From NCBI GenBank assembly GCA_965655095.1, contig OZ296657.1, positions 40,176,001 to 40,240,000 of the forward strand: 64,000 nucleotides of DNA, read 5' to 3'. Of this stretch, positions 5,201-56,172 are shown in pieces. The stretch comes from Haplodiscus bocki. Its lineage: Eukaryota. Every line of letters starts with the position of its first letter. Position 1 is the stretch's first letter. Under the pieces are notes generated by a model. It saw only the letters and a list, made by a program, of their open reading frames with translations, had not been told where the DNA came from and did no database searches. A program made the position numbers and the translations under genes.

Positions 5201-7393
5201 AAGAAACTAAAAGTGTTGCAAGTTGATAAATCCGTTGAAAAATTCAATTGAGGAGGTAGATAAGGTAACCTTGTTTCAGTTCTTAGGCATCAGGTTTGTT
5301 GACACCCATAGTTAGTCTTTTGGCGCTGAAAAAATACCACTTCACTTCGAAATACCTTCAGCTGGAACACATGGTTCTAAGATTCCCACACTCGGGGAAT
5401 ACCACAAAGCGCGATTGCTATTGAATGTCCTTGATTTTTCAACAATCTTTCTTCCAGAAATACAATAATCAATTATTCCAAGTAGGTCTGACTCAGAAGC
5501 CTCCTGATTGTACAATACCTTATTGAAAAACTGCTGTCTTTGTACCTTGCGTAAAAAACTTGATAGTCCGAAAAGTCCGAAAAGTGCTATCATTACTGAT
5601 TTATCTCGATGTTTAAACTCATTTTCTCAGCAAAAACTCGCATTATTTTTTCTGTCAAGGTCTCACTCCAAAGCCTCACACTTGTAGAGAAGGAATCGAT
5701 GGAAACGCCAAGGACTTTGATCTTTCCCTCAGACCTCTGATAATCCGAAAATCTTGCAATGAGCTATTAGTTTTGAAGGATTACGAAATACAAGCTATTT
5801 TTCTACCTAAATGCAGCTTAGTTTTCTTCAACGAGGTCTCGAAAGAGCGACCTTCTGTCGTACAGACACTGAGCTGTAGAGGATTCTTGGTTTTAAAAAC
5901 CATTGATTTGGTTTCTTGAATGGCAAACTCGATAGCTCGAAAATGCCAAGCAACTGCTATTAGTTTTGACAATTTTTATATAAATCCAGACAAAGTTCTA
6001 GATAACAATTGACATAAGTTCATGCATCAAAGTCTCAGTCTGAAGCCTCCGTTTTTGGTGGACTACTCCCTTGAAAGTTTATTAATTTTTTTCCCGTGTG
6101 TCGCAATCCCGATAGTCCTAGAACGCCTAAAAGAGTTTCATTTTCCATAAAGTCACCCAATTCAAACTCATGTTCATCTATAACAACAGGTTTAATTTAT
6201 TCCACCAAGGTCGCAATCAAAAAACCTACACTTTGAGGAGTATCGGGTTTGAAAACTTTCAATCCCGTTCTTGCATTGCAATAGCTGCAGTCCAATGACG
6301 CCAGCAGTATTTATTTTATGAAGTCGTCTCTTTCGAAGTCGTCTTTCTCCAAAAAAAATGGAATCGATTTCTTTCTTCAAGGTCTCAACATAAAGTATTG
6401 TTCTTTTGTTGGAATATTCACTTCGGAATCTTTTTCAACCGTGCAGTGGAGTGCTGACGAACCACAAATGACAGAAGGTTCTACTGGTCCTCACATGCCT
6501 CAAAGTTCGAACTCGAATTACGTCAGCTTTGTTTCATTTTTCTACCAAGTTGTCATTGAATAGCTTTTTCACGCCAACTGTTTGTTTCCGCAAAGCGTGT
6601 AATTTGTCCCTGACATCAAACTTGGAGTTTTGATTCACAAAAACTGCCAAAAGTACTCATAGTATTGAGATCTCTCGATTTTCCGACTCGTCCTTCTCGA
6701 AAACTAAAGATGTGATTTTTTCCATCAACGTAATAAATGATGAAAATAAATTTTTTTTATTTCTTGCGTGGAGCAATCTCTGATTTTGACCCCCAGATTG
6801 GAATGTTCATGGGTCGAAAATGCAAAATGGTCCATTTAAGCTTGTCATTTTGCTAATTTTCCTACTCATAGTTCCCTAAAGTTATAGGACTCATTTATTC
6901 CTACAAGGTCTCCGTCGCGATTTTTTTGTCCATAATGGGTTGTTTTTGAAAGAAGTTTTTGTATGATTGATCTTTCTTAATGGGCACATTGATGGAAGCA
7001 ATCGCAAATCGGTTGTGCCTCTTGTTGAGCTTTTTCAATTTGTTTCAACTTTTTTGCCAGAGAAAAATTTCCAAGACCAAATTGTTTGTTTGGTTTTTCA
7101 ACGCGAAATCATTGAAACGTCTGAAATTCGATCGAATTCTAGCTCCATATTGGGTTACTTCTTCAGCGTGTTAAGGTCTCATCAAAAGTCAAGCGTCACA
7201 TTTCACAAATTGTTTCCCATGTAGGTCATATTTGGGCGAGACCAAACATACCAATTTATACGAGATTAACGAAAGTTATCAAAAAATTTGGTTATAGTAG
7301 GATACGTTATACGACAGTTGAGCTACACGAACAAAATTTCAATCAAAAAATAATATACAATGCTTAAAACGTCTTCTTTGTGAGACGAGGAAT

Positions 7394-9696: not shown

Positions 9697-9789
9697 CAAA
9701 ACGGTACCCATGAGGAGCTACAACTCACGCCTTTTACAGGGACGTCAAAAAGATTGGGCGGCTCTATGAAAAAGGGAAGATAAAGGAAG

Positions 9790-10420
9790 TTTGAGTTTGA
9801 GACTTTTGGCACAGGAAGGTCAGAGATCTCTTTCTCAGTAAGACTCGCACCACCAACTAGGAAGACTGCAGTTTCACAAAAAAGGTCAAAGTGGGGTATG
9901 AAGTTATGGACGATGATTGCAGAAACTCCTGTTTTTGCTAAAATGATGGGTTGTTTCTAGGCTGGTTCTTGATCAGGTCAAATTGTCTGTGTCCAGATGT
10001 ACAGTGGGTCCAGTGGGCCACGAATACCATGTGGTAGGAGTTTTGGGCAGGACCATCCGAGCAAGTTGTCGCTTTAACCTGGGGGAAGGTGAGTAGAATT
10101 AAAGCAGAATTCCCAGTCGCCGATCAAATACCACAAAGGGTAAAACTTGATGTCTAAATTGTAGTCATGAGGATGACTTCTGAAATTAGGACGTGCAAAA
10201 CTCATGACCGGTTCGATGAGTGGGTCAGATGATGGCCCAGACACTTTGGCGGAGTCGAACACGAATTTGAGCGAAGCGATCTTCCGAATTACTGTATCTG
10301 AGTTGCTGGGTTTGAACTGGCAAAACTTATTGTGAAAGAAGAAACATTGAGGATGGTACCCGTAAGTAACTGATGTGTCACTCGTTATTTCGTCCGAATA
10401 ACTTTTCAAGTTTGAAGAAT
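9790..10420 (-). pseudogene. TRAF-type MATH domain remnant (stops and frameshifts)
   Basis: Manual minus-strand translation: VIRKIASLKFVFDSAK...PNFRSHPHDYNLDIKFYP / CGI*SATGNSALILLTFP / PG*SDNLLGWSCPK...NFIPHFDLF...FLVGGAS. This is colinear with the TRAF-C consensus IWKI...SPxFYTxxxGYxxxxRxYxNG...GxYDxLLxWPF...FxPxxxL...YxxDD. Confidence 0.75.
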
Positions 10421-12004
10421 CTCGTGGTTATTCACTATAACGTCGTGGGAGAGTTGTCTTGGGTGCTAGACGTAGGCTCTGGATCAGTATTTGTGGTAAA
10501 GGCTGTTCTCACTCTTGGTGGTCACGCAGCATCTTGCGGGGTGAAATGAAAAATTGATGTGCAACCAGCAGAAGAAAGTATGAGGTCCGATGATATAAGG
10601 GTAGGGTTAGGTTTAATTGTGGAACTTACTGCTAAATTTCGAAAAAAAGTGCACGTTGACGGGATTTACACCAACATAAAAAACAGGAGGTGACGGAGAA
10701 GTGCAAAATTATTCTGCAGTTGGACGGCAATCAAATGCAGTTCTTTCAGGTTCAGTTGGTCGGACTTTAAGTGTTCCTGGATTTGTCCCATTCCTGTGTG
10801 AATGGCATGTAGGCAATCCGCTTGTTGATTCTGAAGTTTTTGAGGGTTGGAGTATTGGGGTTCCAGGGAGAAGTTCGAGAAGCTGCGGGTTGAGTCAAAA
10901 ACGACTCCTTGGGGCCATAGCATCAAAGTTGGGGGTTTGAGTGTTGGAAACAGAAGATAGTTCAGTCAGCGGAGACATTCCGCAAACTATTCGAAGGAGA
11001 GAGGGATTCAAAAATGCTAAATTGTCCAATGATTTACCAGGAACTGGGAGGGGGAAATCAGTTGGGGGAAAAAGACTGGTGCAAGAGGAGTCAAGGACAT
11101 AAGCCGGATAGAGCAGTGATAGCTTTGGCGTTTATGCAAGTCGTTGACAAAGTAGTGATGTGTTTTGAAGTGTGAACTCCTGGCGGCAATTATCCCACAC
11201 GACTAAAACCCATGATTAAAAATCTTGTTTCAGACTGTAATGCAGATGTTGGCTGAACCGAGGTTATTTTATCTTCCCTTTATGAAAATTGTAAAACTCG
11301 TGGCGATGTTGACCTCCAAGAGTGGAGTGATGAAGTCGAAGTTTGAAATGACCGTCTCAAGGAAGAAAAGTTTGAATGTCAGAGACAGGAGAATTGAAGT
11401 TGGGAGGTCTGGTTAGTTTGTAGAGAAACTGTCGTCGGGCGACAACATAGGAAGTTGTAAAGCATCTAGCCCGGAAGCAATAGCTTCTACTATATTGTCG
11501 GGTGGAGCAGGGTTAGAGCTTAATTTAGGTGGAGAAGAGACAGGGGAAGGAAAAGTAACAATTGGATTGATGGGGACATACAAGCCAGAAAGTTTAACCT
11601 CTTGCAAGTCTTCGTCAGGATCGGAAGCAACTGGGAGGCAATCGTCACATCGAAGAAAGATTGATTGCACGGTGACCTAGAAAAACAATTATAACAAATT
11701 TAAACGGGCGACATTGAAGTTACGGGTGAGTTTAACTGCGTTGGACTCATTACGGGCTAGAAATCCTCTTGTTTTTCCATACCATCCTATCTGAGCTCAC
11801 TCAGCTTTACCTCATTACATATGGTTTTTTCTTTCTCTTGCGCGGCAAAGGACGACGCGCAGTGATCATACAAGGGAGCTAAAACCGACATGAAAAAAAT
11901 GTTGTATAAGGCTCTTACCAAACATGAGCGCCGCTGCGTCAGTTTTTTTGATTATTTCGGAAGGGCGTAAAACCATTACCACTACATGTATGATAAGCTT
12001 GACA

Positions 12005-13723
12005 TTAGAAAGACAGAAAAATTGATTCAACAGTGTTCCAAAACATATGCAACTGGTTCATAGGTATCCATAAGGCTCTCCTTGAAACAACCAGGCAAAA
12101 ACATTTTGTCCACAAAGAAGTCAGTTCGTGGAGCATCATTAGACGCACTGCCAGGGTTTTTTCCAAAGCATTTCCGGAAGCGGCACTGACGAGGATACTG
12201 CCCCAAAAACTGGTCGTTTCGCTTCTAGTATACATTCCTGCATCATGGGAACCGGAAAAAGAATCAACTGCTACAGGTGAGACGCCTTTAGGCCCAAACT
12301 CAGCAGGTCTGTCTTGATGCACGATGCCAGGTGTTAGTGTTTTCCACGGATCTTCTTGGTGCATGTCGAATTGGAAAAGTTCCTTTATTCGATCGGTACA
12401 TTTTTGTAAATGAGCTGCTGGGTGAGTTTGTCGGGTGATGGGGTGAACGAATTTGATCTGGCGTTCATAAAGTATAGGTAATCGATCGTCACACTGCTTC
12501 TTGGTATGAAGAGGCGCATGAACTAGTAGGCAGTGATAAAGTCAAACTAGGGTGCCATCTGTTTCAAGAAACATTGATAGGTTTCATGTTAGCATATAGC
12601 CTGAAAGATGGGGGTTCTCATAAGAAAACATCAAATTTGTAAGTATCTGGGTTTTTTCTTGCTCTTATTAATTTTTCAGAAGTTGTATTACAAAAGCCTG
12701 AAGTAGTCTTGGACTCTGAAAGAAAAATTTATCCAGTTTGGTTTCCGTATGCATCTTGTAGTCCAAAGCCTTATATATGTATATCTTCAATACTCGTTTT
12801 GTGAGACGTTTGGTTTGGTTTGGTTCGTATGCATACATTTGAGCAAAACCATTTTTCTTGAAGTGGGCTATACACTTTAAAAGTTGATTCGCACCATTTG
12901 TTCCCATGGTTCCTGCCAGATCTCAAGTCGAAGCCTACGCCAAAATTTGCTACATAGAGTGAAGCATAATTCGCCGGGTAAATATATGTTGGCTTTCCGA
13001 AGTCTTTTTGTGGGTTATTTATAACTGCGAATGCAAAATTGGTTGTTGCATAAGGTCCCTTGATTCACCATGTTGAGATCTTTGGCTCAGAAAGTTTGAC
13101 AAAACACCGTTGTCGGGGTTGTGCCATATAAAGGCAAGACGGTCCAATGAGGTCTCACAACCTTCTTGAGCTGAATCGGATAAAATTTTCCAGTGGACAT
13201 TCTAATCTTGAGAGTCGTTCTGTGCATGGAACGGAGGTGTGTATCGCGGGTAATCCCAGCTATTCCGCCAGGGTTTATCATGTCGTCGTTTATGGGACCA
13301 TCCATTGTTATAAAGGGATCTTTTGTACACTATTTAACTCCCAAAAGTTGATAAGCCAAAGAGATCATCTTTCCTTTTGTAAGAAAGCGGCCTCGTTTGA
13401 GTGTGATCACTCAGTAACTAGTAAATTCAGCAATGGTGTGTTCAATACTACTGTGTTCATTATGTCTACAATGCCATTTTCTCGCTGACGCTGTATTCGA
13501 TGTTTTGTTGCAAGCAATTTTTTTGGAAAAGCTTTGTCTGGAGCATATTTTTGGTCCGACTGATTTCAAGTCCTCGAGGTGTAATGTTGCCTTGTCGTAC
13601 CTGGTTGAGAGCATAGGGAGTGTTTTCCGTCCTTGCGCCGCAGTCATTTTGAGACAATTTAAGATTACTTGCCACCTGGTCTTCGCCTGGAACTAAAATT
13701 TGAGCAACCTCGGAACGCATCAC
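12005..13723 (-). pseudogene. Envelope-like class III fusion glycoprotein remnant (chuvirus G / herpes gB-like)
   Basis: Colinear Cys-containing fragments: QNDCGARTENTPYALNQVRQ (like the AYDC start), KWHCRHNEHSSI, LDYKMHTETKLDKFFFQ, and at ~12420-12580 SMFLETDGTLV*LYHCLLVH...QCDDRLPILYERQIKFVHPITRQT. The last resembles the C-x-x-x-L-P-V...F-x-x-P-x-T-R motif of chuvirus/gB-like env proteins. It lies downstream of integrase in the env position. Recognised by eye. Confidence 0.6.
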
Positions 13724-20767: not shown

Positions 20768-20883
20768 TGAAAAATGTTTATGCACTGTATTTGATGAAAA
20801 ATGTTTATGCACTGTATTTGATGAAAAATGTTTATGCACTGTATTTGATGAAAAATGTTTATGCACTGTATTTATGAAAAATG
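20768..20883 (+). repeat. 27-bp tandem repeat, ~4.3 copies
   Basis: Unit TGAAAAATGTTTATGCACTGTATTTGA starting at 20768, 20795, 20822 and 20849. Confidence 0.95.
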
Positions 20884-22231
20884 CTCAAATACACATTAAG
20901 CGAGGTATCAAAATATCGTACGAAAATTGCGTTCAAACCAAAAAATTACAAACCGAGTAACCTTATAAATACCCCTAAATTTTTTTCAAAAAATTCTAAA
21001 AATTGTAAGAATTTTGCCCCATCTATTCAGGAGACGGTTTGGAACCTTGGTAACCTCACTTGGCAGCAGCAAAATTGAAAGAAATTTTGATTGATTGAAA
21101 CATTGACTCAGATGCATGTTATATAATATCAATTGAAGCTCTCGGAAACTTTACACTTCTGCGGGTCAATTAATTTTGTCTCCTCCTAAGTAGCGTTTTT
21201 CATTGATTTTCGCGATTTTGATATTCTATAATTAGCTTGCGGCGACGTTTTCGAAAGTAGTGGTTTAGCCATTAACGAACAAAACTAGTAATGATAAAAC
21301 CTTAATTCCTATATGATTGTGTCACCAGGAAGAAAGGTTTGACATCGCTCTTTCTGAAATCGCTGAAGTTAAGTTTAATTATAAATCACTCTCGAAATGA
21401 CGCGACTTTCCTCAATAGAAAATGAAAGGGCGCAAACATTTCCACAGAACATATCCCGCCAATGGGGAGAACGAAGTGAGCGCTGTCCGTTAACCCTAAA
21501 AAATTTTTCTTACAGGGACTATTTGTTAACTAAAATTGAAAATTTGGAACTTTCAGAAGGTTAAGTTGTGGAATAAACTTGTATGTGACTGCTCCTTATG
21601 ACTCGGGGCCTAAATGGCAAAAAAATTCTGCAAAACACTAACTTTGAGGGATATGAAATCAGCAGGCACATCAATTTCTGCAGTTTCGACAGAGAAGTGG
21701 GTCAAGAAGTGTGATGAGTGTGTGATCTAATCTACTGACGTCATGTCTGTAACTATTTTTAGTTAGAACATCAGAGGGCTTATCCCGCATTTTGCATATC
21801 GTCATCATTACATCATTTCGAAGATAGCAACAAAATAAACATCAAAGGAGGAGACGCCGAAAAATGATGACAATCAAAATATGGATACGAAAATGTGGAT
21901 AAATACTGAAGATCAAGAAAAGCATGTTTGCATGTAGGACTTACATCATGGAAATCCTGTTTCAAGGGTTTAATATGTCTTGGTGACTATGGTTGAAGTA
22001 AAAGGGGTGTAGCTGCTCATACATGAAAGGGGAAATATAAATATTACATTATATTTTCAGGCTTCTTTATGTGGTCAATTTGTCGTTATATTATATTAAA
22101 TACGACAAAAATGTTGTTATTAGGCTTCATGCACAGGTTTGGCTTCAATTTAATGCATTGTGGTCAAAAGATAGGCATTATGACTGTCTTTTGAACAAAT
22201 AATAATTTTCACTGGGAATTCGCTAGTAGAG

Positions 22232-25024: not shown

Positions 25025-28000
25025 AGTCGCAGAGGTAGGGGGGAGTGCTGCGCTACTACGAGCATGCGGAAAGTAGAAATATTACTTGAATTTAATTTTC
25101 TTTCTGGTTCTAGTTTTTTCTCTCGCTTAGTGCGGCAGGTGATTAGCATACCTTTTGTTGTCTGGATCAATACAACAGCGGCGCCGCCGCGGTTGTTTTG
25201 TTTAATGAAAGTAAGTCTCAGGGGCTTTTATTAATCTACTTTCAGGTGCCTTGCAGGCCTCGCGAACAAAGATTGCGTAAGTTCAAAAGCAAGAACTTTA
25301 TGAGCGATGGAGGCAAAATAGTAAATAAAATAATCAAAAATTCAGTCAACCGAGGGGAACAAACATATGCAAAGGAAAAATGAAAGAGAACTGCGCTAAT
25401 TGGGAACTGAGTCATGTCTCAGCAATAGTAGCGAAAGTGGGGGTGAGAAGAAATTTAGTATCTATTCCAGGCCGTTCACAAAAGCGGTTGTTGAAAAAGA
25501 ATTATTGAGTTAGAAAATACAAAAAAACTCTCTCCCTCACAGAAATTTCAGTTCATTCCCAAATTTGCATAGACATCCGAAGAATATAAATTCATCAAAA
25601 GATTTATCAACTTAGCAGAAGACTTATCAAACGTAATAATCAAGAACAATCAAATTTAGAACGCTGATCATTCTAAAATGGAAATCTGATATAATGTTAA
25701 CAATCATAAAAGTTTACAGAAATCTCGATATAAATAAAATCCGTCCAAAGTGCAAATAAAATAAAACTTTGAAAAGACCAAAATGTGAGGTAATTCAAAA
25801 GAAAAGAAAAAAATCCCAAGCTTTGCTATTTGGGATGTATTAAAATGAGAGGTAGGGTACTACAGATAAATATTTCTTTTTGTTTGAAATAGGAAGGAGA
25901 TTTACTCTTCTCCTATTTTTCTAGCACTTTTTTAGGGTCGGGTTTAGTTTTTTGTTAGTTTTGGTTGATTAGTTAACGTTATGTCATATATATTGTTTTC
26001 GTCTACACTCAGTACCTGCGCCAGCATAGCAACTGGTTTTCAAACCTAGTCTCCGCAAATTTCCCGGACCGTGAATAATCACCGGATATTTTGGCGGGGT
26101 TTGGTTCGTTTAACTCTTATCTAATGATCAGGTGAAAGCCCGCGTTTTAGCGGCAGCCTGGTGATGTTCTCTTAGTCCCTTTTTCTCCAACCGAGACTTT
26201 TGTGCGGGTGATAAAAATGGGAGCTGGGAAAGAATTGCTGTCTATTCCATTAAGCTTCTGAAGAACAGGTTGTTACAAATTGCAGCCACAAAAATCAGTA
26301 TAAAAATCTCTCTTCACATTTATCCAAATTGTACATATCCCCAAACAAAAAAAAAACAACATTAATCGGACCGTCTAGAAGATTTCGAAAGTAAGAACAG
26401 TATGATTATATTCAAGAATTCTGGGAGTTACCAACTGTGTGAATTATCCCGGATAAAGGATTGCTGAAGATGGCTTGATTAAAAAATTGTACAAACGAGT
26501 CAAGATAAATGATTTTTAGTCCAAAATGCAAATGATATAAAATGTTCATGGCACAGTAAAAAAGCTGTTAGTGAATTAATTTTAGAATCAAGAGAAAAAC
26601 AACATAATTATTAGAAAATACCCAAGAATATTCAATTGCGGTATTTTAGCATTAAGCGGAAGCCATACGGGTAACATATTCTTGTTTTAGTCTAAGAAGG
26701 AGCTTCTCTTTTCTCCAATTCTTCTAGCACTGTTTTCTTTTAGGTTGGGCTCTTTTTTTGGTAATTTTATTTTTAATCGCTGATGTAATCTCATATATAA
26801 AAATTCATCATTTAGTCTACACTCGGTACTTGTGTTAGCATAGTAACTGGTTCAACAAGCTTAGTTTTTCCGAATTTTTCAAACCGTGAATAAATCACCG
26901 GATTTATTGGCGCGGTTTGATTTGTTTTAGGTTTTTTCTAAAACTCACGTAAGAGTTCGTTTATAACGGCAACCTGGTGACGTTCTTTTAGTTCTTTTTT
27001 CTCCAACCGAGACTTTTTTCTAGCGTATTTTACGGAAAAGACTTACAGAAAATTAAAAATGATCAGAGAGATTTACTCGTTCTGAGTTAGAAAAGTCTCT
27101 AACTAACGGGTACCATTGATGAAATCGGATGATCTGCTGGTATCTCTGGGACTCTCCTCTTATAGATATCAATTGCGAAGAAATTGACTAAAAATTTGTG
27201 AATCTATGCAAAGAATGGAATTGTTTGAATCAAGCACGGACGGTTTCTGCGTATTTAATCCGTATCTTGGAATTTAGAAAGTATTCTGAAGACCACGGAA
27301 GCAGACGAGGTGAGATTTGATCTATGTAACGTCAATTCTCTTTGACTAGGAACCTCGTGGAGGGTCGTGCTGTTTAAGATCCACTCATGCTTCAGAACCG
27401 GAGCTCGTCAGCGGAATTCACACACGCTGATATCGAGGCTAGCGTTAGTGGACACTGTTTAGACTCCAGCGGCAAGAGTATAGAATAAATAAAATGTTTT
27501 GCAAATTAAGATTCACTCTTGTTTCAGAACTGAGGTTCGTCCACGGGATCAGCAGACGCCAATGCCGAAGCTAGCGTTAGTGGACACCGTTTAGACTCCG
27601 GAGGCAAGAGTTTAGAATTTGTAGGCAGAAAGAGGGAATTTTTCTAAGACAGAAAGAAATTGGGACTAAGAATATTTTTGTAGGATTGGAATGACTTTGC
27701 GGCTCAGACAATTTTTGGAATAGTCTTAGAAAAATTTTGCAAGGACCTAGAATAGAGAAGAGAGAAGAGAAACTTGGACTTAGAATTTTTTGTCGAAAAA
27801 CAAAAGGGAGAAAGGGAGTTGGATTTAAAATAGTTTTTCCAAGTAAAAGGGAGAAGGAGAGTAAGGTAGAGCAAGTCAGAAGAGGAGTATGGAGTCCCGT
27901 CCGCAAAGCGGGAAAGTGAGTTACGATTGAGTCCGTTTCCTAGATCGACTCCAAAATAACAGCATCCTGCCGTTTCATGCAACCAATAGAAAAAAAAGCT

Positions 28001-28211
28001 TGTATCAGGCATGGTTGGCAGCAGGAGCCATTACGAAAAAAGCTCGCGTTAGAAATTTTTTGTAAAAAATATTTGTGCAACTCCGACGGTTTCTTTATTC
28101 CATCAGCTTTTATATTCTTTATAATTCCTTCACCTCTCCATAAAACGTTAGTTTCAATTAATTAATCATGTTTTATTTAATTAGCGTTTAAGCGTTATGT
28201 GGAACGCGATA
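25025..28211. mobile_element. Solo LTR, family A (3.2 kb), 4-bp TSD TTTC
   Basis: TTTC|AGTCGCAGAG...ACGCGATA|TTTC. 26200-28211 is highly similar to 54150-56172. Internal duplications at ~25850-26200 vs ~26690-27020 and a ~135-bp repeat at 27440/27570. Confidence 0.85.
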
Positions 28212-29512
28212 TTTCCCTTTTTAAAAATTTTCAATGCTAAAATTAAAACAGGATTTTTTCAATTCTGATGCTACTTATACTGGTAAGGAGGCCTGATATT
28301 CAACTTTCGGTGAAAAATTTTAACTTCTCAAAACAAAAATTGTCATATAGTTGTTTTATGAAATCAATCTCATTCCACGTTATAGACACGAATTTGATTT
28401 TATAAAAAATCATACCTTTGAATGCTTTAGAGGGGAAGCGAAGACAAAATCGGTTGATTTTTGTATTTTTTAAGGTTTTTAAAGTTTCAACAGAAGCTGG
28501 AAATTGATCGAAAAGTGGCAAAATGTGCTTCCTCGTAACTTTTCGATTTTTGGTCAAATTTTAGAACAAATAACACGACTAAAATCCTGTGAAAGTCCGT
28601 GAACAACTTAATTGATTGAACAACTTAATTGAACAACTTCCTTGAAAAATTCAGACTTCAAAAAATTGGGCTCTAAACTTGTCTAATTTCACTTCTCAAG
28701 AGTGCCAAAGCAAAAACTGAAAGGACTTTGCAGCAATGTACTTCTTGAATGTTTTGGACCACAAATTGATTATTAATACCATTACGACTAAGTGTTCAGC
28801 AAATGAGTTATTTCCAATTTCAAATTTTAGTGTGACTGTTGATAATGGTTTTTCTAACTGGCCATTAGCTACTTGTATTTCAAAATTGGGAGGGTCGTCG
28901 ATTTTGAGAATGTTATTGGGGGCTTTCTGTTTGATTGATTCCAAGTCATCCTGGGCGATTGCGCTGACAAATTGACAAATACTCCTGAGTCCACCAGAGC
29001 ATCTACCGTTAGATTATTCTCAAAATCCAGAGGCACATAGAGCATTTCTTGCTTCCGTTTCAAGACTACAGTGGATGTTAATGGGAGAAACACCTCATTT
29101 GTTTGTTCATCTCGCACCAGCCCTTCTTCAATTAGTGGGGTTGCAGTGGTGAGAGACGGAGTTGTTGTAAGTCCATTAGGGGTAGTCACTGCGTGCTGTT
29201 CTGTGTTTTGGGTGTTGGTAGAAGAATTTTTGGAGCAGTCAAGGAACGGTACTGGCTCATTCCCTGTTTTTCCCGAAGATTTTTCCGTGGTGTCCACGTG
29301 GTGCTGTGGTTGGGTTCCCTTGGGTGGTGACGTTTGACTTGCTACATTTGTCTTTATAGTCGATTCATTAGTAGTATTATTTAAATTGTCTTGGTTTGTA
29401 ACGATCTCCGTAGGTTGCTGCCAGACAACCTCGGGAATTGGCGGAAGTTTAGATTTTTCATTTGTCTCCGGTCTGTCGCATGCAGGTCCGGAGTGAAGAC
29501 GTGGCGTTTTTA

Positions 29513-29519
29513 GTTTAAA
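29513..29519 (-). promoter_or_regulatory. -1 programmed ribosomal frameshift slippery site U_UUA_AAC at the gag/pro-pol junction
   Basis: gag ends GCT TTA AAC TAA. The -1 frame (TTT AAA CTA AAA ACG CCA...) stays open and joins ORF 28869..29297, which contains the VDSG protease motif. A CTCCGG...CCGGAG stem lies downstream. Confidence 0.8.
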
Positions 29520-30810
29520 GCTTCGGCTGCAGCTTGGATATTTCCATCTGAATTGTTTTGAGCATTTTTTTGCTGGCTTTGGTTCTGTCCTTCCGGTCGT
29601 CTATTTCGTGGAGGCGGTCTATTCGCTGCATTTGCTCCAAGATAGCATCTCTCTGTGGAGTGGTTAGTTCTACCACATGTCTCACAGGGTGGGAAGACGG
29701 GTTTTGGTCTTCTGTCTCTTTGATTATTTATATTGTTTCCTTTGGTATCGGTTGCAACTTTGTTGTTATTGTGGTTAGAGTTTGTTTGGGCGCTTCCATT
29801 GTTGTTGTTGGCACTATTTGTGTTATTTCGGGTTTGGTCTTTCGGGTTTGGTTTGAGTTGACGACACTGGTTTTGATAGTGACTTGGTTTTTTACAATGG
29901 TGGCACGTTGGTCTGGGCTTGTTAGTGTTTTGCTGTGGGGTTTGTTGCGTCACAGTGTTTATGGGCATTTCATCCGGAGCTTCCAAACCATTTAATTCTA
30001 ACTCCCTTTCAAGATGCGACACAATCTGTTCATACGTGCCGTTTTCCAGATGCGCCTAGTTAATTGATTTCTTCAGGTGCTGGGGCATTTTGGCATAGAT
30101 GAATTGCTCGATGATCGCTTGGGCTGCAACTCCGAATGCGTCTTTTGCCAATTTCTGGAGTTCATCTAGAAAATCAATTAACTTCTGGTTTGAGGGGTTA
30201 AAGACCAGTCGTTGAAACTTGTGTTTTGCCGTAGCCATTGACTGGGGTTTCTCGTACTTTCTACGGAACACAGTCAGGATTTCTCCCAAATTCTCTCTGT
30301 TGGGGCTAGTGATGTTTTTGAAAGTCTGTAGAGCATCACCGCGCATGAGAGAGTGGAAGTAGTTTATCTTGTCTTCTTCCGTCAACTGATTGTGGATTTT
30401 CAAACTCGTTTGGAATATATCTTCAAACAGTTCGAATTTCTCTGATTTTCCGTCAAACGTAGGCATCTTCGTTGTCAGAGACTTAGGCAATTTCGAGATT
30501 CGGCTAATATTATTGTTGAAATTGGCTGAATTGGATTTCGTCGCCAATTGTTGAAGGGCCAACAAAATCTGGTCTGCTTCAATTGTCGCAGGGCTATTCT
30601 CACTGCGGAATTGAGGTTGACTTGTGGAGCGCGCCTTCTTCTGTTTGCCTGACGAAGTAGTAGGAGAGCAGTAGGGAATTTCTTCTTGAGTTGCTGTCGT
30701 CGCGTGAGGGTTGTGACAAATCTCTTCTGTGGCTCCTGTCACCATGTGAGGATAGTGACGAATTTCTCCTGTAGCTCCTGTCACCATGTGAGGATACGTT
30801 TCCGTCACCA

Positions 30811-32584
30811 TGTCTGCCTCAGAACTATTGAGTTGTCCCGAGTGGTGAGGAAAATACCCCCCTTCGGGATAAGGATCGGTTGAGGAGCGGTCCCCATGAA
30901 GTTCTCAGCTTTCTGTGTTAACGTTTCTAGACGCTCCCTGAAATACGGAACAAGTCCGCACTTGTGGGTTAAGGAGAAACTCGTCAAGTTTCGATAGAGC
31001 ACCCAAGATACGTGACTCCGTTTTGTTAAACTCCTTCGACAGTTTCTTAGTTACCCTCCCTTCAATCTCCTCGGAGACCTGGGAGATGTAACCCTGGGTT
31101 AACTCAGGGTCAAGTACATTCCGTCCTCTACTGCCTCTACTGCTGTCGGGCGTTTCTCTTGACACTGCCGCTAATTTTCTCTTGTTTCTCAGTGTTGCCA
31201 TATTTCTTGAGGGGAAAAATCTTGTCAGTGATGAAGACTGAATTTCTACCTTGTGTTTTAATATTGATGAATTTCCTCTTGGTATGAGGGATCATGTTCC
31301 AATCGTATAAAAGTCAAAAGATGATTTTTGAAAACAACAATACTAAACAGTCACAATATTTTATAAAAGTACCAAACCGAAAGGCTACAATTTATATAAT
31401 AATACTTGTACTTTTATTTCTCCTATTTATACCTTTCCTTGACGGGAAACAAAATTGTTTACACGCCAAATCAAGGTACAAATAGGGAAAAATACTTTAA
31501 TCATATTATTTATCAAAGAAATTGGATGCCGACTCTGGCGGGAAATAAACACCCTTCCGTCCATTTCTTCCCTCACGGACCGCGTCTGTTCAATCTTTCG
31601 ACAGAAAAAAGTACGGTCCGATCCGTCTAAAATGGACATCAAAGTGGTTATTCCCGCGCCGACATCATAAATAATAACATGAACAAAAGATCAAAGTTAT
31701 TTCCAAACAGGGAATAAATACAATAATACAGTTGGAAAAATAATTTAAAGTAAGGAAAATTAATGTTTATAGTCTCAAAAGATTCATGACTACATGCTGC
31801 GTCGATTAAAACCACTGTTTGGAACAAACTAGGCGTAAATCCTAGCCCGTTCCACGTTTCTACCAGCTCAGGCCTCACTTTGGCCGGAGTGTTCCGTGGC
31901 GGCTACGTAGCCGCTTGTAGCACTGCCTTCCGCAGTGCTACTGAGGAGAATGATTCTGGTGGCTACGTAGACGTCCCGTGGCCGTCCAAAGTGAAACAGC
32001 GTAGTAGCACAGCGGATTGACTGAAATTCTAGTGACGTCACCAGATTAGTTACGACGGAACACATACGGAACAAATATTCACTTTTAAAGTCAAGCTCTG
32101 TTCTAATAGTTAAGCTATTGAAAACTTGTTAAAGCTGTCAATCTAAAAAGATTACTGCACATTCAAAAAGGTGGATTTATATAATAATTACATTAATTAT
32201 ATAAAATAGCACCTAAAATTATTATAAAATACAGTGAATATTCCTTTGTTCCGCATCTATTCCGTCCCAATAAGGATCAGTTCTCCAGAATTAAACGTAT
32301 CGGATACGTGCTTTTTACATGAAATAAATGTTATGGGACGATACGTAACTACTACGTATCGTCCACATAAATTACATGTGTGCGTACTAGGTGGATACGT
32401 ATCTACTACGTATCCTTAAGTATAATTAAATGAGTTCATGAATTAAATAAATAGGGCTTCAAGTTTAAGAGTTTACGTATAAGTTTGGAGTGTCGCTGGT
32501 GTCTCTAACTTCTGCTAGATGGACCTGGGGTGTCCTTTGTTGACGGGATCGTTTGTCCGCAGGCTTCGCAGATGTGCTGCGACA
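30811..32584 (-). mobile_element. 5' LTR of family B (includes gag start at 31201)
   Basis: Homology to the solo LTR 40395-42094 ends where minus-strand ...GACA is followed by TGGTGAC (PBS-like). Confidence 0.7.
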
Positions 32585-36049: not shown

Positions 36050-36150
36050 AATGACTGGACCGGGGTCATCTCGACTGGAAGCTAGATACCGGTCCCAAGC
36101 CCGGCGCCATTCATATGGAGGAGGAGGGTTGGGGCCTGGCGTTCCCCGTA
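36050..36150 (+). ncRNA. Twister-ribozyme-like motif at the LINE 5' end (partial or variant)
   Basis: CCGGTCCCAAGCCCGG (36089-36104) matches the twister P4/L4 hairpin, and the following GGAGGAGGG supplies the P2 3' strand and the pseudoknot partner. The canonical upstream P1-UAA-CUCC-GC segment is not cleanly present. Confidence 0.55.
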
Positions 36151-39100
36151 AAACTAAGCCATGAACCCACTATGCTAAGTCCTCTTACTGACATACCGAT
36201 CTCAGCTACGCCCCCAGCGGTAACTGGGGCCGCCATGAGTGCCGTCGTGGCGGAAACTGCAAATTCGGCAGAATCCTACAAGAAACTGAATCATTCCAAA
36301 AACTTTCTTCATATGTGCACATGGAACGTGTTAACCCTACTACCCATTGGATCCCTGGAACTCTTAGACGTGTCGCTTACCAACCATTCTATCGACGTCG
36401 CATGCCTTCAAGAAACTAGAATCAGAGGCGATACAAAGTCAGTGACCAGAAACTACCAGATACTGACAAGCGGGTATGAAGACAAAAAGGGCCTCCACGG
36501 TGTCGGGATCGCTGTTTCTAACAGAATCAGTAACTCTATTCAATCGTGGCAGGCCATCAGCGCCCGAATATGCGCTATGCGCATCAATGCCAAGCCCACG
36601 CCCATCTCCATCTTGTCCTGCTATGCCCCTACCGAGGATACTGATTCATCCAAAAAAGACGACTTCTATATGAGCCTGCAGAGAGTCATAGACGCCGTTC
36701 CAAAGGGCGATGCCCTAGTCATCGGCGGTGATATGAATGCGAAGCTAGGATGGTCCAGTACATCCGAAAGCAAGCACATTGGTCGGTTTGTTAAGCCATC
36801 ACAGCGCAATGACAATGGTGATCGGTTAGCTCTTTTCGCATCCGCTAATGACCTCTCCGTTGCTAACACCATGTACCAGAAGAAAAAACACCAACTCAGC
36901 ACGTGGACATCAAGGGACAGGAAAACGAAAAACCAAATCGATTTCTTTCTTATAAAAAGAAGATGGCGCACAGCCATAAACGACATCCGCACTCGCAAGG
37001 ACAACCTGCTCATTGATAGCGACCACCAGATGCTTAAGTGCAAGATCAAATCCAAGCTGAAGACATACACAAAGTCTTACAAAGCCCAACGGTTCAACAT
37101 TGAAGGCCTTCGACACCCTGCCACGGCCAGACAGTACTGTCAGGAGCTACGTAAAACCGCTCAAGCGCTTCCGCACGACAGTACCGTGAACAGAAAATGG
37201 GAGTATATAAGAGACGCTATGATCAAAACTGCTAAAAAGACCATCGGCAAGACTCAAACCAAAAGTAAACCCTGGATTTCTCAGGAGACTCTCAATGCAA
37301 TTAAACATAGAGAGAGCCTCAAAAACAAGGGTGCGCCGCGCAACAAGATTAAAGAACAGAGGAAGCACATCAAGAAGCTTCTCAGGAGAGACAAAAACAA
37401 ATACATTGACGACAAAACTGCCGACATCGAACTGGCTAATGAGAAAGGGCACACCAGGGAAATGTACCGGCTGATCCGAACACTTGGAGGCTGTAAAAAG
37501 CATGCTTCGGAAACAATTAAAGACTCTAGCGGTCAGCGAATTTCCGATACCAGGAAAATCATGGAAAGATGGGCAGAGCACTTTGTCGAACTGCTCAACG
37601 CTGATACTAGCTCCACTCCATTACTCAAACGATTCACCCCACCCGTGGTCTTAGCAGAAATAGATACCGAAGCTCCAACCAAAAATGAGATAACCCACGC
37701 TTTGAGAGAACTTCAGAATCGTCGTGCTGGAGGATGCGACGGCATCCCGCCCGAGTTGTACAAAGAAGGCGGCGAGGCTCTCATTGACATGCTGAAATCC
37801 CTTCTCGATGACATCTGGGACAGTGAACAAATTCTGGATGAATGGCGGACTTCTGTACTTCTTCCTTTCCACAAGAAAGGCGACACGCAGATTTGTAGTA
37901 ATTACCGTGGCATCTCTCTGCTCTGTATAGGCTTCAAAATCCTCGAAACTATCCTTCTGGCTAGACTCACAGAAGCCTACGAACCTGCTGCTCGAGACAA
38001 TCAGGCGGGGTTCAGAAAAAAGAGAGGATGCCGAGACCAAGTTTTCGCGCTTCGACAAATTTTGGAGCAACGAAGTGAATTCAACAGATCTACAGTTATG
38101 ACGTTCATCGATTTCAAGGCGGCGTTTGATAGCGTAAACCGCAATGCGATTTGGCAAATCTTCGAACGCCTAGGCATGCCACAAAAGATCGCCAACATCA
38201 TCAGAAATATGTATACCGATACGAATAGCATCGTGAAGATGAATAACAACCTCTCCGACCCCTTTCCGGTGTGCTCGGGTGTGCGCCAAGGCGGTGTTCT
38301 GTCGCCTTTCTTATTTAATCTTCTGATCGACTGGGTTATGCATACAGCCACTGAGGGCACCAATCACGGAATACAGCTTGAAACTCTCATTACCGACCTT
38401 GACTACGCTGACGATATCTGTCTCTTGGAAGACAACAGCGCTGATGCCCAGGCCCTCCTCGATAGGGTCCTTTCTGCCGCGGTCGAAGTTGGTCTCAAAA
38501 TCAACGCCGGGAAGACGAAATGTATGCTCTCCAGACTAGAGCCGTCTTCGATTTACTGTAACGGCTGTGCCCTTGACAACGTAGCAGAATTCGATTACCT
38601 AGGCAGTCGCATCTCTCACAATGGTGACATCTCCAGTGAGATCCAGCATAGAATTACCCGTGCAACTGCTAATGCCTGCCAGCTCAACAAACTCTGGAGC
38701 AATAGAGATATCACTATCAAAACCAAGAGCAAAGTGTATAAAGCCTGTGTTCGTAGCGCCCTCCTGTACGGCGCAGAGACCTGGACCCTAAGGAAAGCTG
38801 ATCTCTCCCGACTGGACGCATTCGAGAACAGATGTGCTAGAAAATTCTTTGGAGGTAAAACTGAACTCAGATCTTCGACCATCAGAAGCATGGCACACCT
38901 GGGTGGCTCACTGGATCCACTCCTCCGGCAGATGCGCCTGAAATGGTGCGGGCATGTGTTCCGGATGACAGAGGACAGAGTCACCAGAGAGGCATTGATG
39001 TTCGACAAGGCTACATCTTGGAAGCGCCCACCAGGGGGAATGAGAAAGACCTGGAGAACTACTGTGGCAGAAGATCTGGAGCCCATTCTGAAACCCCCAC

Positions 39101-39231
39101 GGATGAGATCCGATATTTGGAAGAGGAAGTGGAAGGATACCTGCAGTGAAATTGCGACGGACAGGCCGAGATGGCGAGCAGTTGTCCGGGACGCGGTATC
39201 GGTGGCTGGCAATGGGCAGACATGCCTCTAG
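36115..39231 (+). CDS. APE endonuclease-reverse transcriptase (RTE-type ORF); true start may be a downstream ATG
   Basis: EN motifs TWNV, CLQET, YAPT, GDMNA, NQIDF, SDH; RT motifs NYRGISLL, QAGFR, FIDFKAAFDSV, GVRQG, YADD, YLGS; RTE C-terminal RLKWCGHVFRM; no stops. Confidence 0.97.
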   Translation: MEEEGWGLAFPVKLSHEPTMLSPLTDIPISATPPAVTGAAMSAVVAETANSAESYKKLNHSKNFLHMCTWNVLTLLPIGSLELLDVSLTNHSIDVACLQETRIRGDTKSVTRNYQILTSGYEDKKGLHGVGIAVSNRISNSIQSWQAISARICAMRINAKPTPISILSCYAPTEDTDSSKKDDFYMSLQRVIDAVPKGDALVIGGDMNAKLGWSSTSESKHIGRFVKPSQRNDNGDRLALFASANDLSVANTMYQKKKHQLSTWTSRDRKTKNQIDFFLIKRRWRTAINDIRTRKDNLLIDSDHQMLKCKIKSKLKTYTKSYKAQRFNIEGLRHPATARQYCQELRKTAQALPHDSTVNRKWEYIRDAMIKTAKKTIGKTQTKSKPWISQETLNAIKHRESLKNKGAPRNKIKEQRKHIKKLLRRDKNKYIDDKTADIELANEKGHTREMYRLIRTLGGCKKHASETIKDSSGQRISDTRKIMERWAEHFVELLNADTSSTPLLKRFTPPVVLAEIDTEAPTKNEITHALRELQNRRAGGCDGIPPELYKEGGEALIDMLKSLLDDIWDSEQILDEWRTSVLLPFHKKGDTQICSNYRGISLLCIGFKILETILLARLTEAYEPAARDNQAGFRKKRGCRDQVFALRQILEQRSEFNRSTVMTFIDFKAAFDSVNRNAIWQIFERLGMPQKIANIIRNMYTDTNSIVKMNNNLSDPFPVCSGVRQGGVLSPFLFNLLIDWVMHTATEGTNHGIQLETLITDLDYADDICLLEDNSADAQALLDRVLSAAVEVGLKINAGKTKCMLSRLEPSSIYCNGCALDNVAEFDYLGSRISHNGDISSEIQHRITRATANACQLNKLWSNRDITIKTKSKVYKACVRSALLYGAETWTLRKADLSRLDAFENRCARKFFGGKTELRSSTIRSMAHLGGSLDPLLRQMRLKWCGHVFRMTEDRVTREALMFDKATSWKRPPGGMRKTWRTTVAEDLEPILKPPRMRSDIWKRKWKDTCSEIATDRPRWRAVVRDAVSVAGNGQTCL

Positions 39232-53917: not shown

Positions 53918-56172
53918 TGTCGCAGAGCATGAATAGTTAAGAGAGAGAAAGCTAGAGATTGAAAATGGAAATAGTATTTGGTTCTAATTTTCTCTCTCGC
54001 TTAGAGCGGTGCGTGACTAAGCGCCATTAAGCGCGATGAAAGGAAAATAGAAAATGAAGTAATCAATCATTCAGTCAACCGAGGGGAACAAATGTGTTCA
54101 AGTAAAACATGAAAGACAACTGCGCGATTTGGGAATTGAGTCATGTATGTGTGCGGGTGATAAAATTGGGAGCTGGGAAAGAATTGCTGTCTATTCCATT
54201 AAGCTTGTGAAGAACAGCTTGTTACAAATTGCAGCCACAAAAATCAGTATAAAAATCTCCCTTCATATTTATCCAAATTGTACATATCCCCAAGTAAAAA
54301 TACAACATTAATCGGCCCGTCTAGAAGATTTCGAAAGTACGAACAGTATGATTATATTCAAGAAATCTGGGAGTTACCAACTGTGTCAATTATCCCGGAT
54401 AACGGATTGCTGAAGATGGCTTGATTAAAAAATTGTACAAACGAGTCAAGATAAATTATAATAGGCCCAAAATGCAAATGATATAAAATGTTCACGACAC
54501 AGTAAAAATGCTGTTAGTGAGTTAATTTCAGAATCAAGAGAAAAACAACATAATCATTACAAAAGACCCAAGAAGATTCAATTGGGGTATTTTAGCATTA
54601 ACGGGTAATTTATTCTTGTTTTAGTCTAGGAAGGAGATTCTTTTTCCTCCAAATTTTCTAGCACTGTTTTCTTTTAGGTTGGGCTCTATTTTTGGTAATT
54701 TTATTTTTAATCGCTTATGTTATGCCATATACAAAAATTCATCTTTTAGTCTTCACTCAGTGTTTGTGTTTGCATAGTAACTGGTTCAAAAAGCTTAGTT
54801 TTCCCGAATTTTTTACACCGTGAATAAATCACCGGATTTATTGGCGGGTTTTGATTTGTTTTGAGTTTTGTCTAATAATCAGGTAAATGCTCGTTTATAA
54901 CGGCGACCTGGTGATGTTCTTTTAGTTCTTTTTCCTCCAACCGAGACTTTTTTCTAGCGGAATTTACGGAAAAGACTTATAGAAAGTTAGAACTGATCAG
55001 AGAGATTTACTCGTTCTGAACTAGAAAACTCTTTAACTAACGGATACTGTTGATGTAGTCGGACGATCTGCTAGTAACTCTGGGACTCTCCTCTTAGGAG
55101 TCTGACTTGCGAAGGAATTGAATAGGAAGTCTTGAATCAATGTAAGGAATGGAATTTTTTGAATGTTGGAAGAGGGTCGGTTTCTGCCAATTTAATCCGT
55201 ATCTCGGAATTTAGAATAAATTCCAAATACCACGGAAGCAGATGAGGCGAGATTTGATCTATGTAACGTCAACTCTCTTTTCCTAGGGACCTCCTAGGGG
55301 TCGTGCTGTTTAAGAACCACTCATGCTTCAGAACCGGAGCTCGTCAGCGGAACTCACACACGCTAAAACCAAAGCTAGCGCTAGTGGACACTGTTTAAAC
55401 TCCAGCGGCAAGAGTATAGAATAAATAAAAAAAGTGTGCAAATTAAGATTCACTCTTGTTTCGGAACCCAGGTTCGTCCACGGAATCAGCACACGCCATT
55501 GCCGAAGCTAGCGTTAGTGGACACCGTTTAGACTCCGGAGGCAAGAGTTCAGAACTTGTAGGAAGAAAGAGGGAATTTTTCTAAGTCAGAAAGAAAATGG
55601 GACTTAGAATATTTTTGTAGAGTTGGAATGATTTTGCGGCTGAGACAGAATTTGGAATTGTCTTAGAATATTTTTTCAAACTTGGAAGTTGGGCTTAGAA
55701 TATTTTCGTCCGAAGAGAAGAGGGAAGAGATATTTGGACTTAGAAAATCTTGTCCAAAAAAGCAAAACGGAGAAAGGGAGTTGGACTTAGAATATTTTTT
55801 TCAAGTAAAAGGGAGAAGGAGAGTAAAGTAAAGCAAGTCAGAAGAGGAGTAAGGAGTCCTGTCTGATAAGCGGGAAAGTGAATAATGATCGAGTCCGTTT
55901 CCCAGATCGACTGCAAAATAACAGCTTGCCGCCATTTCATGCAAGCAATAGAAAAAAAGCTTGTACCAACCATGATTGGCAGCAGGAGCCAATAAAAAAA
56001 TAGCTCCAGTTAGAATTTTTTTTGTAAAAATTATTTGTGCAACTCCAACGGTTTATTTATTCCATCAGTTTTTACATTCTTGTTCTTCCGGCTATCCCCT
56101 CAAAAAAGTTAGCTTTGGTTATATGATCATGTTTCAATTAATTAACGTTTAAGCGTTATGTGAAACGCGATA
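53918..56172. mobile_element. Solo LTR, family A (2.26 kb), 4-bp TSD GTAC
   Basis: GTAC|TGTCGCAGAG...ACGCGATA|GTAC; high similarity to 25025-28211. Confidence 0.9.

Follow-up and report, generated by a model that had tools for sequence, protein, structure and literature searches.

A TRAF-like gene of probable host origin, kept under selection in env-bearing Ty3/gypsy elements of Haplodiscus bocki

A broken, intronless gene of the TRAF type adjoins a long terminal repeat (LTR) in the DNA analysed here, a stretch of 64,000 nucleotides of Haplodiscus bocki (contig OZ296657.1, positions 40,176,001 to 40,240,000; hereafter the window, whose own numbering is used). This location raises the questions of whether the gene belongs to a retrotransposon, where it came from and what it does there. 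The original prediction saw a captured host adaptor lying just inside the LTR, used as an immune or apoptosis decoy or amplified passively. The gene and its relatives fall into six TRAF-bearing groups: family A, an older window-like subfamily, and families B, C, D and E. Family D is known from database proteins alone.

The TRAF-like gene and its element

The TRAF-like gene is a pseudogene on the minus strand, at 11,100-9,764, with a PAM2-like N-terminus, coil 1, a linker, coil 2 and a MATH domain. All the peptides quoted in the original prediction lie on this strand: the coiled-coil-like stretch IQEHLKSDQLNLKELHLIAVQLQNN (about 10,850-10,700) and the MATH motifs RSHPHDYNLDIKFYP (about 10,180), PG*SDNLLGWS (about 10,075) and NFIPH (about 9,905). 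However, the predicted extent (9,790-10,930) and distance to the LTR (about 100 nt) had to be revised. With an open natural relative as the query, the tblastn match in the window spans 11,100-9,771, and 41 nt separate the homologous stop from the beginning of the LTR at 9,722. The start codon and a degenerate PAM2-like motif, MSLTPLAPVFFP, occupy 11,100-11,065, with homology reaching the ATG at 11,100. The remnant of coil 1 (10,850-10,690) is homologous to a host coil, FPLxNxKxxQYLH. The remnant of coil 2, the TRAF-N coiled coil (10,430-10,300), was placed by alignment and is helix 217-261 in a model of a family-B protein. The MATH (TRAF-C) remnant at 10,298-9,820 contains frameshifts and three in-frame stops, near 10,075, 9,979 and 9,958. 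There is also a frameshift near 10,400, further stops lie upstream of MATH, and the stop-start overlap found in relatives has been lost.

A Pfam match was obtained from open relatives and not from the window copy, which, with its stops read as X, matched no Pfam family and no PDB entry. The window gene was 50% identical to an open relative over 212 aa (E 7e-58). PF21355 (TRAF-mep_MATH) was above its cut-off in all eight related open frames tested (E 3e-11 to 3e-17), and seven of these eight also passed the cut-off of PF22486. One related open frame had 23 PDB sequence matches, all of them to TRAF domains. Since homology is transitive, from the window copy to its open relatives and from these to PF21355, the MATH call is sound and is not a chance result. 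The predicted lack of a RING or zinc finger was confirmed, as none was recognised, and the element proteins gave no RING or zf-TRAF match in Pfam.

The gene is part of a 5′-truncated Ty3/gypsy element with an env-like fusion gene. The minus-strand order begins with a pol remnant (RNase H and integrase; 19,063-16,225), identified by Pfam and by relatives, at which the element is cut off. It is followed by small-ORF remnants (16,078-14,090), two of them common to families A and B, and by the remnant of an env-like fusion glycoprotein gene (13,789-11,703), detected by tblastn and by PF24664 (Monjiviricetes_fusion, E 2.7e-7 on 12,005-12,541). ORF-X (11,676-11,101) and the TRAF-like gene come next. 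The 41 nt behind them include a degenerate purine-rich tract ending in GTGAGT (9,740-9,723), which has the same position in relatives with paired LTRs. The LTR itself is about 2.3 kb long (9,722-7,450, far end approximate) and was 67-78% identical in pieces to the LTR of a paired-LTR relative. It is the 3′ LTR, the only one that the window copy keeps. The gag and RT of this element family had no match anywhere in the window. The small ORFs had no Pfam match, ORF-X had neither a Pfam nor an Atlas match, and Rfam gave no match in the window between 7 and 20 kb.

The TRAF-like gene is thus the last internal ORF, outside the LTR and not just inside it as had been thought. A MATH domain within the LTR had been considered owing to pairs of MATH matches about 18.5 kb and about 7.8 kb apart. 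This was rejected because long direct repeats span env, ORF-X, TRAF and LTR together, as tandem elements or duplications would. Two other LTRs, at 25,025-28,211 and 53,918-56,172, were rejected as the 5′ partner, since both are solo LTRs, each flanked by a separate 4-bp duplication; they were only about 68% like the LTR at 9.7 kb. These two solo LTRs, both on the minus strand, belong to family A and are 86% alike over 2 kb, and the one at 25,025-28,211 has an internal duplication of about 816 nt.

Other repeats were also seen in the window. At 36,055-39,231 on the plus strand, an open non-LTR frame of 1,058 aa encodes an endonuclease and RT and is flanked by long inverted repeats at 31.0-34.5 kb and 40.8-43.6 kb. 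BEL/Pao-type gag remnants (DUF1759) lie on the minus strand at 492-2,291, with an aspartyl protease, and at 28,869-31,291. A perfect 27-nt tandem repeat occupies 20,768-20,900.

Relatives and the host donor clade

The TRAF-carrying relatives are elements of about 18 kb. Pfam recognised gag, protease, RT, RNase H and integrase in Ty3/gypsy order, and in one relative a fusion-glycoprotein ORF after pol (PF24664, E 7e-33). The paired LTRs were 96-98% alike in three family-A elements and 86-89% alike in one window-like element, while two further loci checked had no clear pair. Target-site duplications of 4 bp were found in two elements. A DNA search of the organism's own genome (1.5 Gb) gave 529 candidates, 40 of which were scored, and the other copies were 68-72% alike. 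First-look searches gave 2,967 candidates with PF21355, 4,293 with the family-A MATH, 3,311 with a family-E-like protein and 4,116 with env; these figures are not copy numbers, as the best 150 were scored per TRAF search and different families led each. The TRAF gene is carried by elements in hundreds of copies or more. Among 90 inspected loci (89 distinct, with a few near-duplicates), 85 had an LTR starting 25-85 nt after the end of MATH, so the predicted adjacency holds well beyond the window. Of the remaining five, one is an element copy whose end is disturbed, and four are host-type genes.

The same linkage was seen from the side of env. Twenty loci were taken across the score range of 121 env matches without regard to TRAF, and a TRAF ORF followed in 14 (13 of family E and one of family C). 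The other six form an env family, F, without TRAF; in five of them an ORF-X-like frame runs into a coiled coil. Where open, this frame is 312-362 aa long (loci L156, L157 and L159-L162), and family F offers a natural comparison lineage.

Several side features of the relatives were recorded. The pol of families A and B has a Macro domain between protease and RT, scoring 22.4 bits with PF01661 in B (cut-off 22) and 18.9 in A. Between pol and env, two sense frames are 64% and 48% identical between A and B, and an antisense frame is 37% identical (L062 6,297-6,755, minus; L083 1,796-2,359, plus); none of the three had a Pfam match. One family-E locus (L164) contains tandem units of env end, ORF-X and TRAF about 2.8 kb apart. 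A public metagenome contig (L148) carries a family-B fragment of env end, ORF-X and TRAF, 83% identical to the query; the metagenome scan found nothing further.

Host proteins related to the element TRAFs are encoded at two loci, L031 and L032. They consist of a coil and MATH and have a GT-AG intron within MATH, after ILHFIxH. In the alignment, the element TRAF copies read straight through this position. Database relatives of the two host proteins include a cluster named Convolutriloba TRAF6-A-like (XP_075250305). No RING was found in this host clade, as Pfam searches of 10 proteins or fragments gave MATH and weak coil matches only; upstream, L032 has a single small exon whose Cys pattern resembles a zinc finger. 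The family-B protein was 28% identical to the L031 and L032 proteins over 340-355 aa, and the similarity reached beyond MATH to the coil-1 motif.

In a tree of 46 rows, families A-D formed one branch (100/99). In a tree of 38 rows, all the element TRAFs grouped with the host acoel-type clade, apart from canonical TRAFs (99/98), and family E took its own branch with two database proteins. An AU test did not reject a single element clade (P = 0.50), although the free tree separates family E. Nothing in this genome matched one of the two database proteins at more than 47%, so another organism also has E-type TRAFs. The env tree (9 rows) has the order (F,(E,(B,(A,C)))), in keeping with the TRAF tree. 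As the trees have no certain root, the donor means the nearest host clade. By the alignments and trees, the donor is likely the host acoel-type TRAF clade, with the intron in MATH that the elements lack, and the gene was likely captured from a spliced host mRNA. The missing intron, the branch shared with the host clade and the fixed site before the 3′ LTR all favour the predicted capture of a host adaptor.

Expression signals and the encoded protein

ORF-X opens in phase 0 directly behind a TAG, which in the window makes 11,678-11,677 a candidate splice acceptor, and the tract is pyrimidine-rich in the window and in families A, B and C. The TAG was found in 26 of 28 A or window-like matches, 11 of 11 in B, one of one in C and five of five in F; the count is limited to frames preceded by a stop, and some loci enter it twice. 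Because no ATG opens ORF-X in families A, B and C, an upstream exon would be needed. A spliced leader supplying the start codon was not adopted, since the acoel leader that has been published lacks an AUG at its end (PMC9911081).

The stop of ORF-X overlaps the TRAF start in 60 of 62 cases (TAATG 24, TGATG 14 and ATGA 22), and for 51 it was verified that the stop belongs to the frame of ORF-X. Family C uses ATGA, and family E has a 2-nt gap instead. Stop-start overlaps serve termination-reinitiation in some RNA viruses. It seems that the TRAF would be expressed from a spliced subgenomic RNA, with the acceptor before ORF-X, and translated by reinitiation at the overlap.

In a structure model of a family-B protein (mean pLDDT 68.5), the N-terminus is disordered and is followed by helices at 59-148; a linker, likewise disordered, separates these from helix 217-261 and the MATH sandwich. 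Helix 217-261 (pLDDT 83-91) directly precedes MATH and aligns with the host coil. The best Foldseek matches were the TRAF domains of TRAF1-6 (E 1e-13). The element protein as modelled has the TRAF fold, and it would form trimers. The Arg-x-Tyr strand and the Gly strand are what we take to be the receptor-peptide groove of canonical TRAF2-6. In the host, the Gly strand reads MSVGILHF. The Gly is kept in the host and family E but lost in families A-D, where the strand differs from family to family; the Tyr is mostly kept, and the Arg is changed to Lys or Gln in A and B. As the peptide-binding strand differs from that of host TRAFs, host partners may not be bound.

The N-terminus begins with LNPxAPxFxP in families A, B and C, which otherwise have little alignable sequence at this end. 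Of 85 element loci, 61 carry this pattern; among the 67 that cover the junction, 58 do. It was absent from the opposite strands (306 kb) and from all 18 host-type or outgroup proteins. PAM2 (PF07145) was the sole Pfam match in four of five N-terminal 30-mers, at 15.4-19.1 bits (E 0.001-0.015), below the 20-bit cut-off; the window and family-C peptides had no score. Family E has neither the motif nor coil 1. The original prediction contained none of the following: the env gene, ORF-X, the candidate splice acceptor, the stop-start overlap and the PAM2-like motif. The PAM2-like peptide would bind an MLLE domain, that of poly(A)-binding protein or of the ligase UBR5, and so would bring whatever the protein binds to RNA granules or a ligase. 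One MLLE was found in the genome, and the flanking HECT-type sequence (PF00632) suggests that it belongs to a UBR5-like gene. The host poly(A)-binding protein gene was not located, as TIGR01628 led to other RRM proteins and a DNA pattern to UBR5 and an unrelated repeat. The UBR5-like host gene itself has a PAM2-like stretch (L143, about 6,380-6,450) just before its intron-split MLLE domain.

Selection, function and known systems

Selection was estimated by pairwise Nei-Gojobori dN/dS among natural copies, the pairs not being independent. In the open frames of families A (19) and B (10), dN/dS was 0.08 and 0.16 for MATH, 0.36 and 0.11 for coil 1, and 0.49 and 0.35 for the linker, in sets whose ranking by MATH similarity lowered dN. 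Two other sets avoid this bias. Among 28 loci chosen by DNA, broken copies included, dN/dS was 0.26 over 378 pairs. In 13 family-E loci chosen by env, it was 0.08 for MATH, 0.15 for the coil, 0.12 for env and 0.11-0.15 for ORF-X. MATH variants shared by at least two copies had a dN/dS of 0.06-0.16, against 0.18-0.33 for private variants. Judging from these ratios, the TRAF is constrained as tightly as env during element replication and decays after insertion. We hold with high confidence that the gene was both captured and selected.

Could the gene be passive cargo, a processed TRAF pseudogene carried along between env and the LTR? The decay of the window copy and the replication of env family F without a TRAF would fit. 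However, such passive amplification, one of the options in the original prediction, is contradicted by the range of 0.08-0.26 in three differently chosen sets. Moreover, a comparison of family A with family B shows saturation at synonymous sites (pS 0.78) with pN in MATH at only 0.32, and the stop-start overlap was kept through an exchange of TGA and TAA. We reject this explanation as very improbable. It is also conceivable that elements spread TRAF copies which the host uses, so that selection reflects host benefit. Many TRAF copies keep open frames of 430-500 aa, and acoels have been suggested to use lineage-specific immune genes (PMC12849515). However, shared variants have the lower dN/dS, as if selection acted in replication and relaxed after insertion. 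Env and ORF-X are equally constrained, and older copies such as that in the window are broken, the open ones being in young elements with LTR pairs 96-98% alike. Service to the host thus seems unlikely, though less so than passive cargo.

Among the readings in which the protein serves the element, our first choice, held tentatively and at slightly less than an even chance, is that it interferes with stress or death signalling that depends on host TRAFs, because the coil and the fold have been retained and family E is under selection although it has no PAM2. The element TRAF is predicted to act as a trimeric adaptor in cells where the element is active, and likely competes with host TRAFs and blunts stress or cell-death signalling. 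PAM2 and coil 1 are not required, since family E lacks both, and neither is the TRAF itself, since env family F has none. The decoy in its predicted form, a RING-less dominant negative of TNFR/TLR-NF-kB signalling, is weak; a decoy against another TRAF-dependent stress or death pathway is plausible. The host donor is already RING-less, so the architecture can be explained without a dominant-negative truncation. In acoels, moreover, TLRs and the entire Toll pathway, NF-kB included, are reported to be absent (PMC12849515, whose main text does not mention TRAF). In this genome, an RHD search run without a positive control was empty, and there was one marginal TNFR-type match (E 8e-4) and two TIR matches. 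Recruitment of TRAF2 to stress granules is reported in a review to dampen signalling (PMC7552005), and by analogy a PAM2-tethered TRAF could imitate this route. A more doubtful alternative has no link to TRAF signalling: MATH would be a re-aimed substrate receptor, and the PAM2-like peptide would recruit an MLLE protein (UBR5 or poly(A)-binding protein), to remove a host silencing or restriction factor or to aid translation and packaging of element RNA. The distribution of the motif, its retention across A, B and C, the diverged peptide-binding strand and the UBR5-like context of the sole MLLE found are consistent with this adaptor. The strong selection on MATH in family E without PAM2, the PAM2 scores below cut-off and the unlocated poly(A)-binding protein gene argue against it.

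A still less likely but more far-reaching reading joins these elements: the captured TRAF was rebuilt into an accessory factor, made from spliced RNA by stop-start reinitiation, in which PAM2 takes the place of the RING and enlists UBR5 or poly(A)-binding protein of the host, while a redirected MATH groove chooses the target. It likens the element TRAF to the accessory factors of complex retroviruses. If true, it would expose a TRAF-dependent defence or death pathway of animals without Toll/NF-kB. What the element TRAF binds may point to the acoels' substitute pathway, because Toll/NF-kB is reported absent. Host-derived accessory genes kept by selection are a mark of complex viruses; to our knowledge, accessory genes have rarely been traced to a donor in invertebrate retroelements. 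There is also a practical side: in such a genome, element cargo accounts for hundreds to thousands of TRAF-like matches, and host TRAFs would be overcounted if these were included.

Several known systems resemble this one in part. Canonical TRAF2-6 E3 adaptors have an N-terminal RING, several zinc fingers and a conserved receptor groove; no RING or zinc finger was found in the element proteins, and their groove is altered in families A-D. TRAF1-like RING-less TRAFs and the acoel TRAF6-A-like type likewise combine a coiled coil with MATH and have no RING; compared with the acoel type, neither the intron nor the single zinc-finger-like exon at the N-terminus is present in the elements, which add the PAM2-like motif and have an altered groove strand. 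A viral TRAF homologue is also known from a fish iridovirus, a large DNA virus: ISKNV ORF111L binds TRADD and promotes caspase-8 apoptosis (PMC3352826). As a virus-borne TRAF that acts on death signalling, it speaks for such a role of the element TRAF; that it promotes apoptosis and does not block it counts against blunting. Errantiviruses, the env-carrying Ty3/gypsy elements of invertebrates (PMC13524379), share the order gag-pol-env, paired LTRs and many young copies; the elements here have two extra ORFs after env. The main text of PMC13524379 contains no occurrence of TRAF, MATH, Xenacoelomorpha or Symsagittifera, and the available text of PMC9911081 does not mention TRAF. In the open literature we found no account of a TRAF-carrying acoel LTR retrotransposon or of a link between PAM2/MLLE and retrotransposons; subscription papers, Repbase and supplements could hold one.

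The closest precedent, by domain content, is Burro (GYPSM1), a giant gypsy element of planarians which also has Ty3/gypsy LTRs, a mononegavirus-type fusion env and MATH_TRAF_C, and for which interference with apoptosis or ubiquitination was proposed (PMC6431247, in the text available). According to the same source, its MATH lies inside a polyprotein of about 5,000 aa or in an upstream ORF, together with BIR, BCL2 and ankyrin, and env lies between gag and pol. In the elements studied here, of about 18 kb, the TRAF stands on its own as the last ORF, behind env and ORF-X. Its coils derive from the host, where a donor clade can be traced, and it has a stop-start overlap and a PAM2-like motif. The ORFs are separate, and BIR, BCL2 and ankyrin were not among the Pfam matches of the relatives. 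The donor clade, the lost intron, selection of env strength and a TRAF-less sister family are all found in one genome, which makes the idea raised for Burro testable on a small stand-alone protein. The combination of MATH and env is known from Burro, and what appears to be new is a host-traced, selected, stand-alone TRAF as the last ORF of an env-bearing Ty3/gypsy element.
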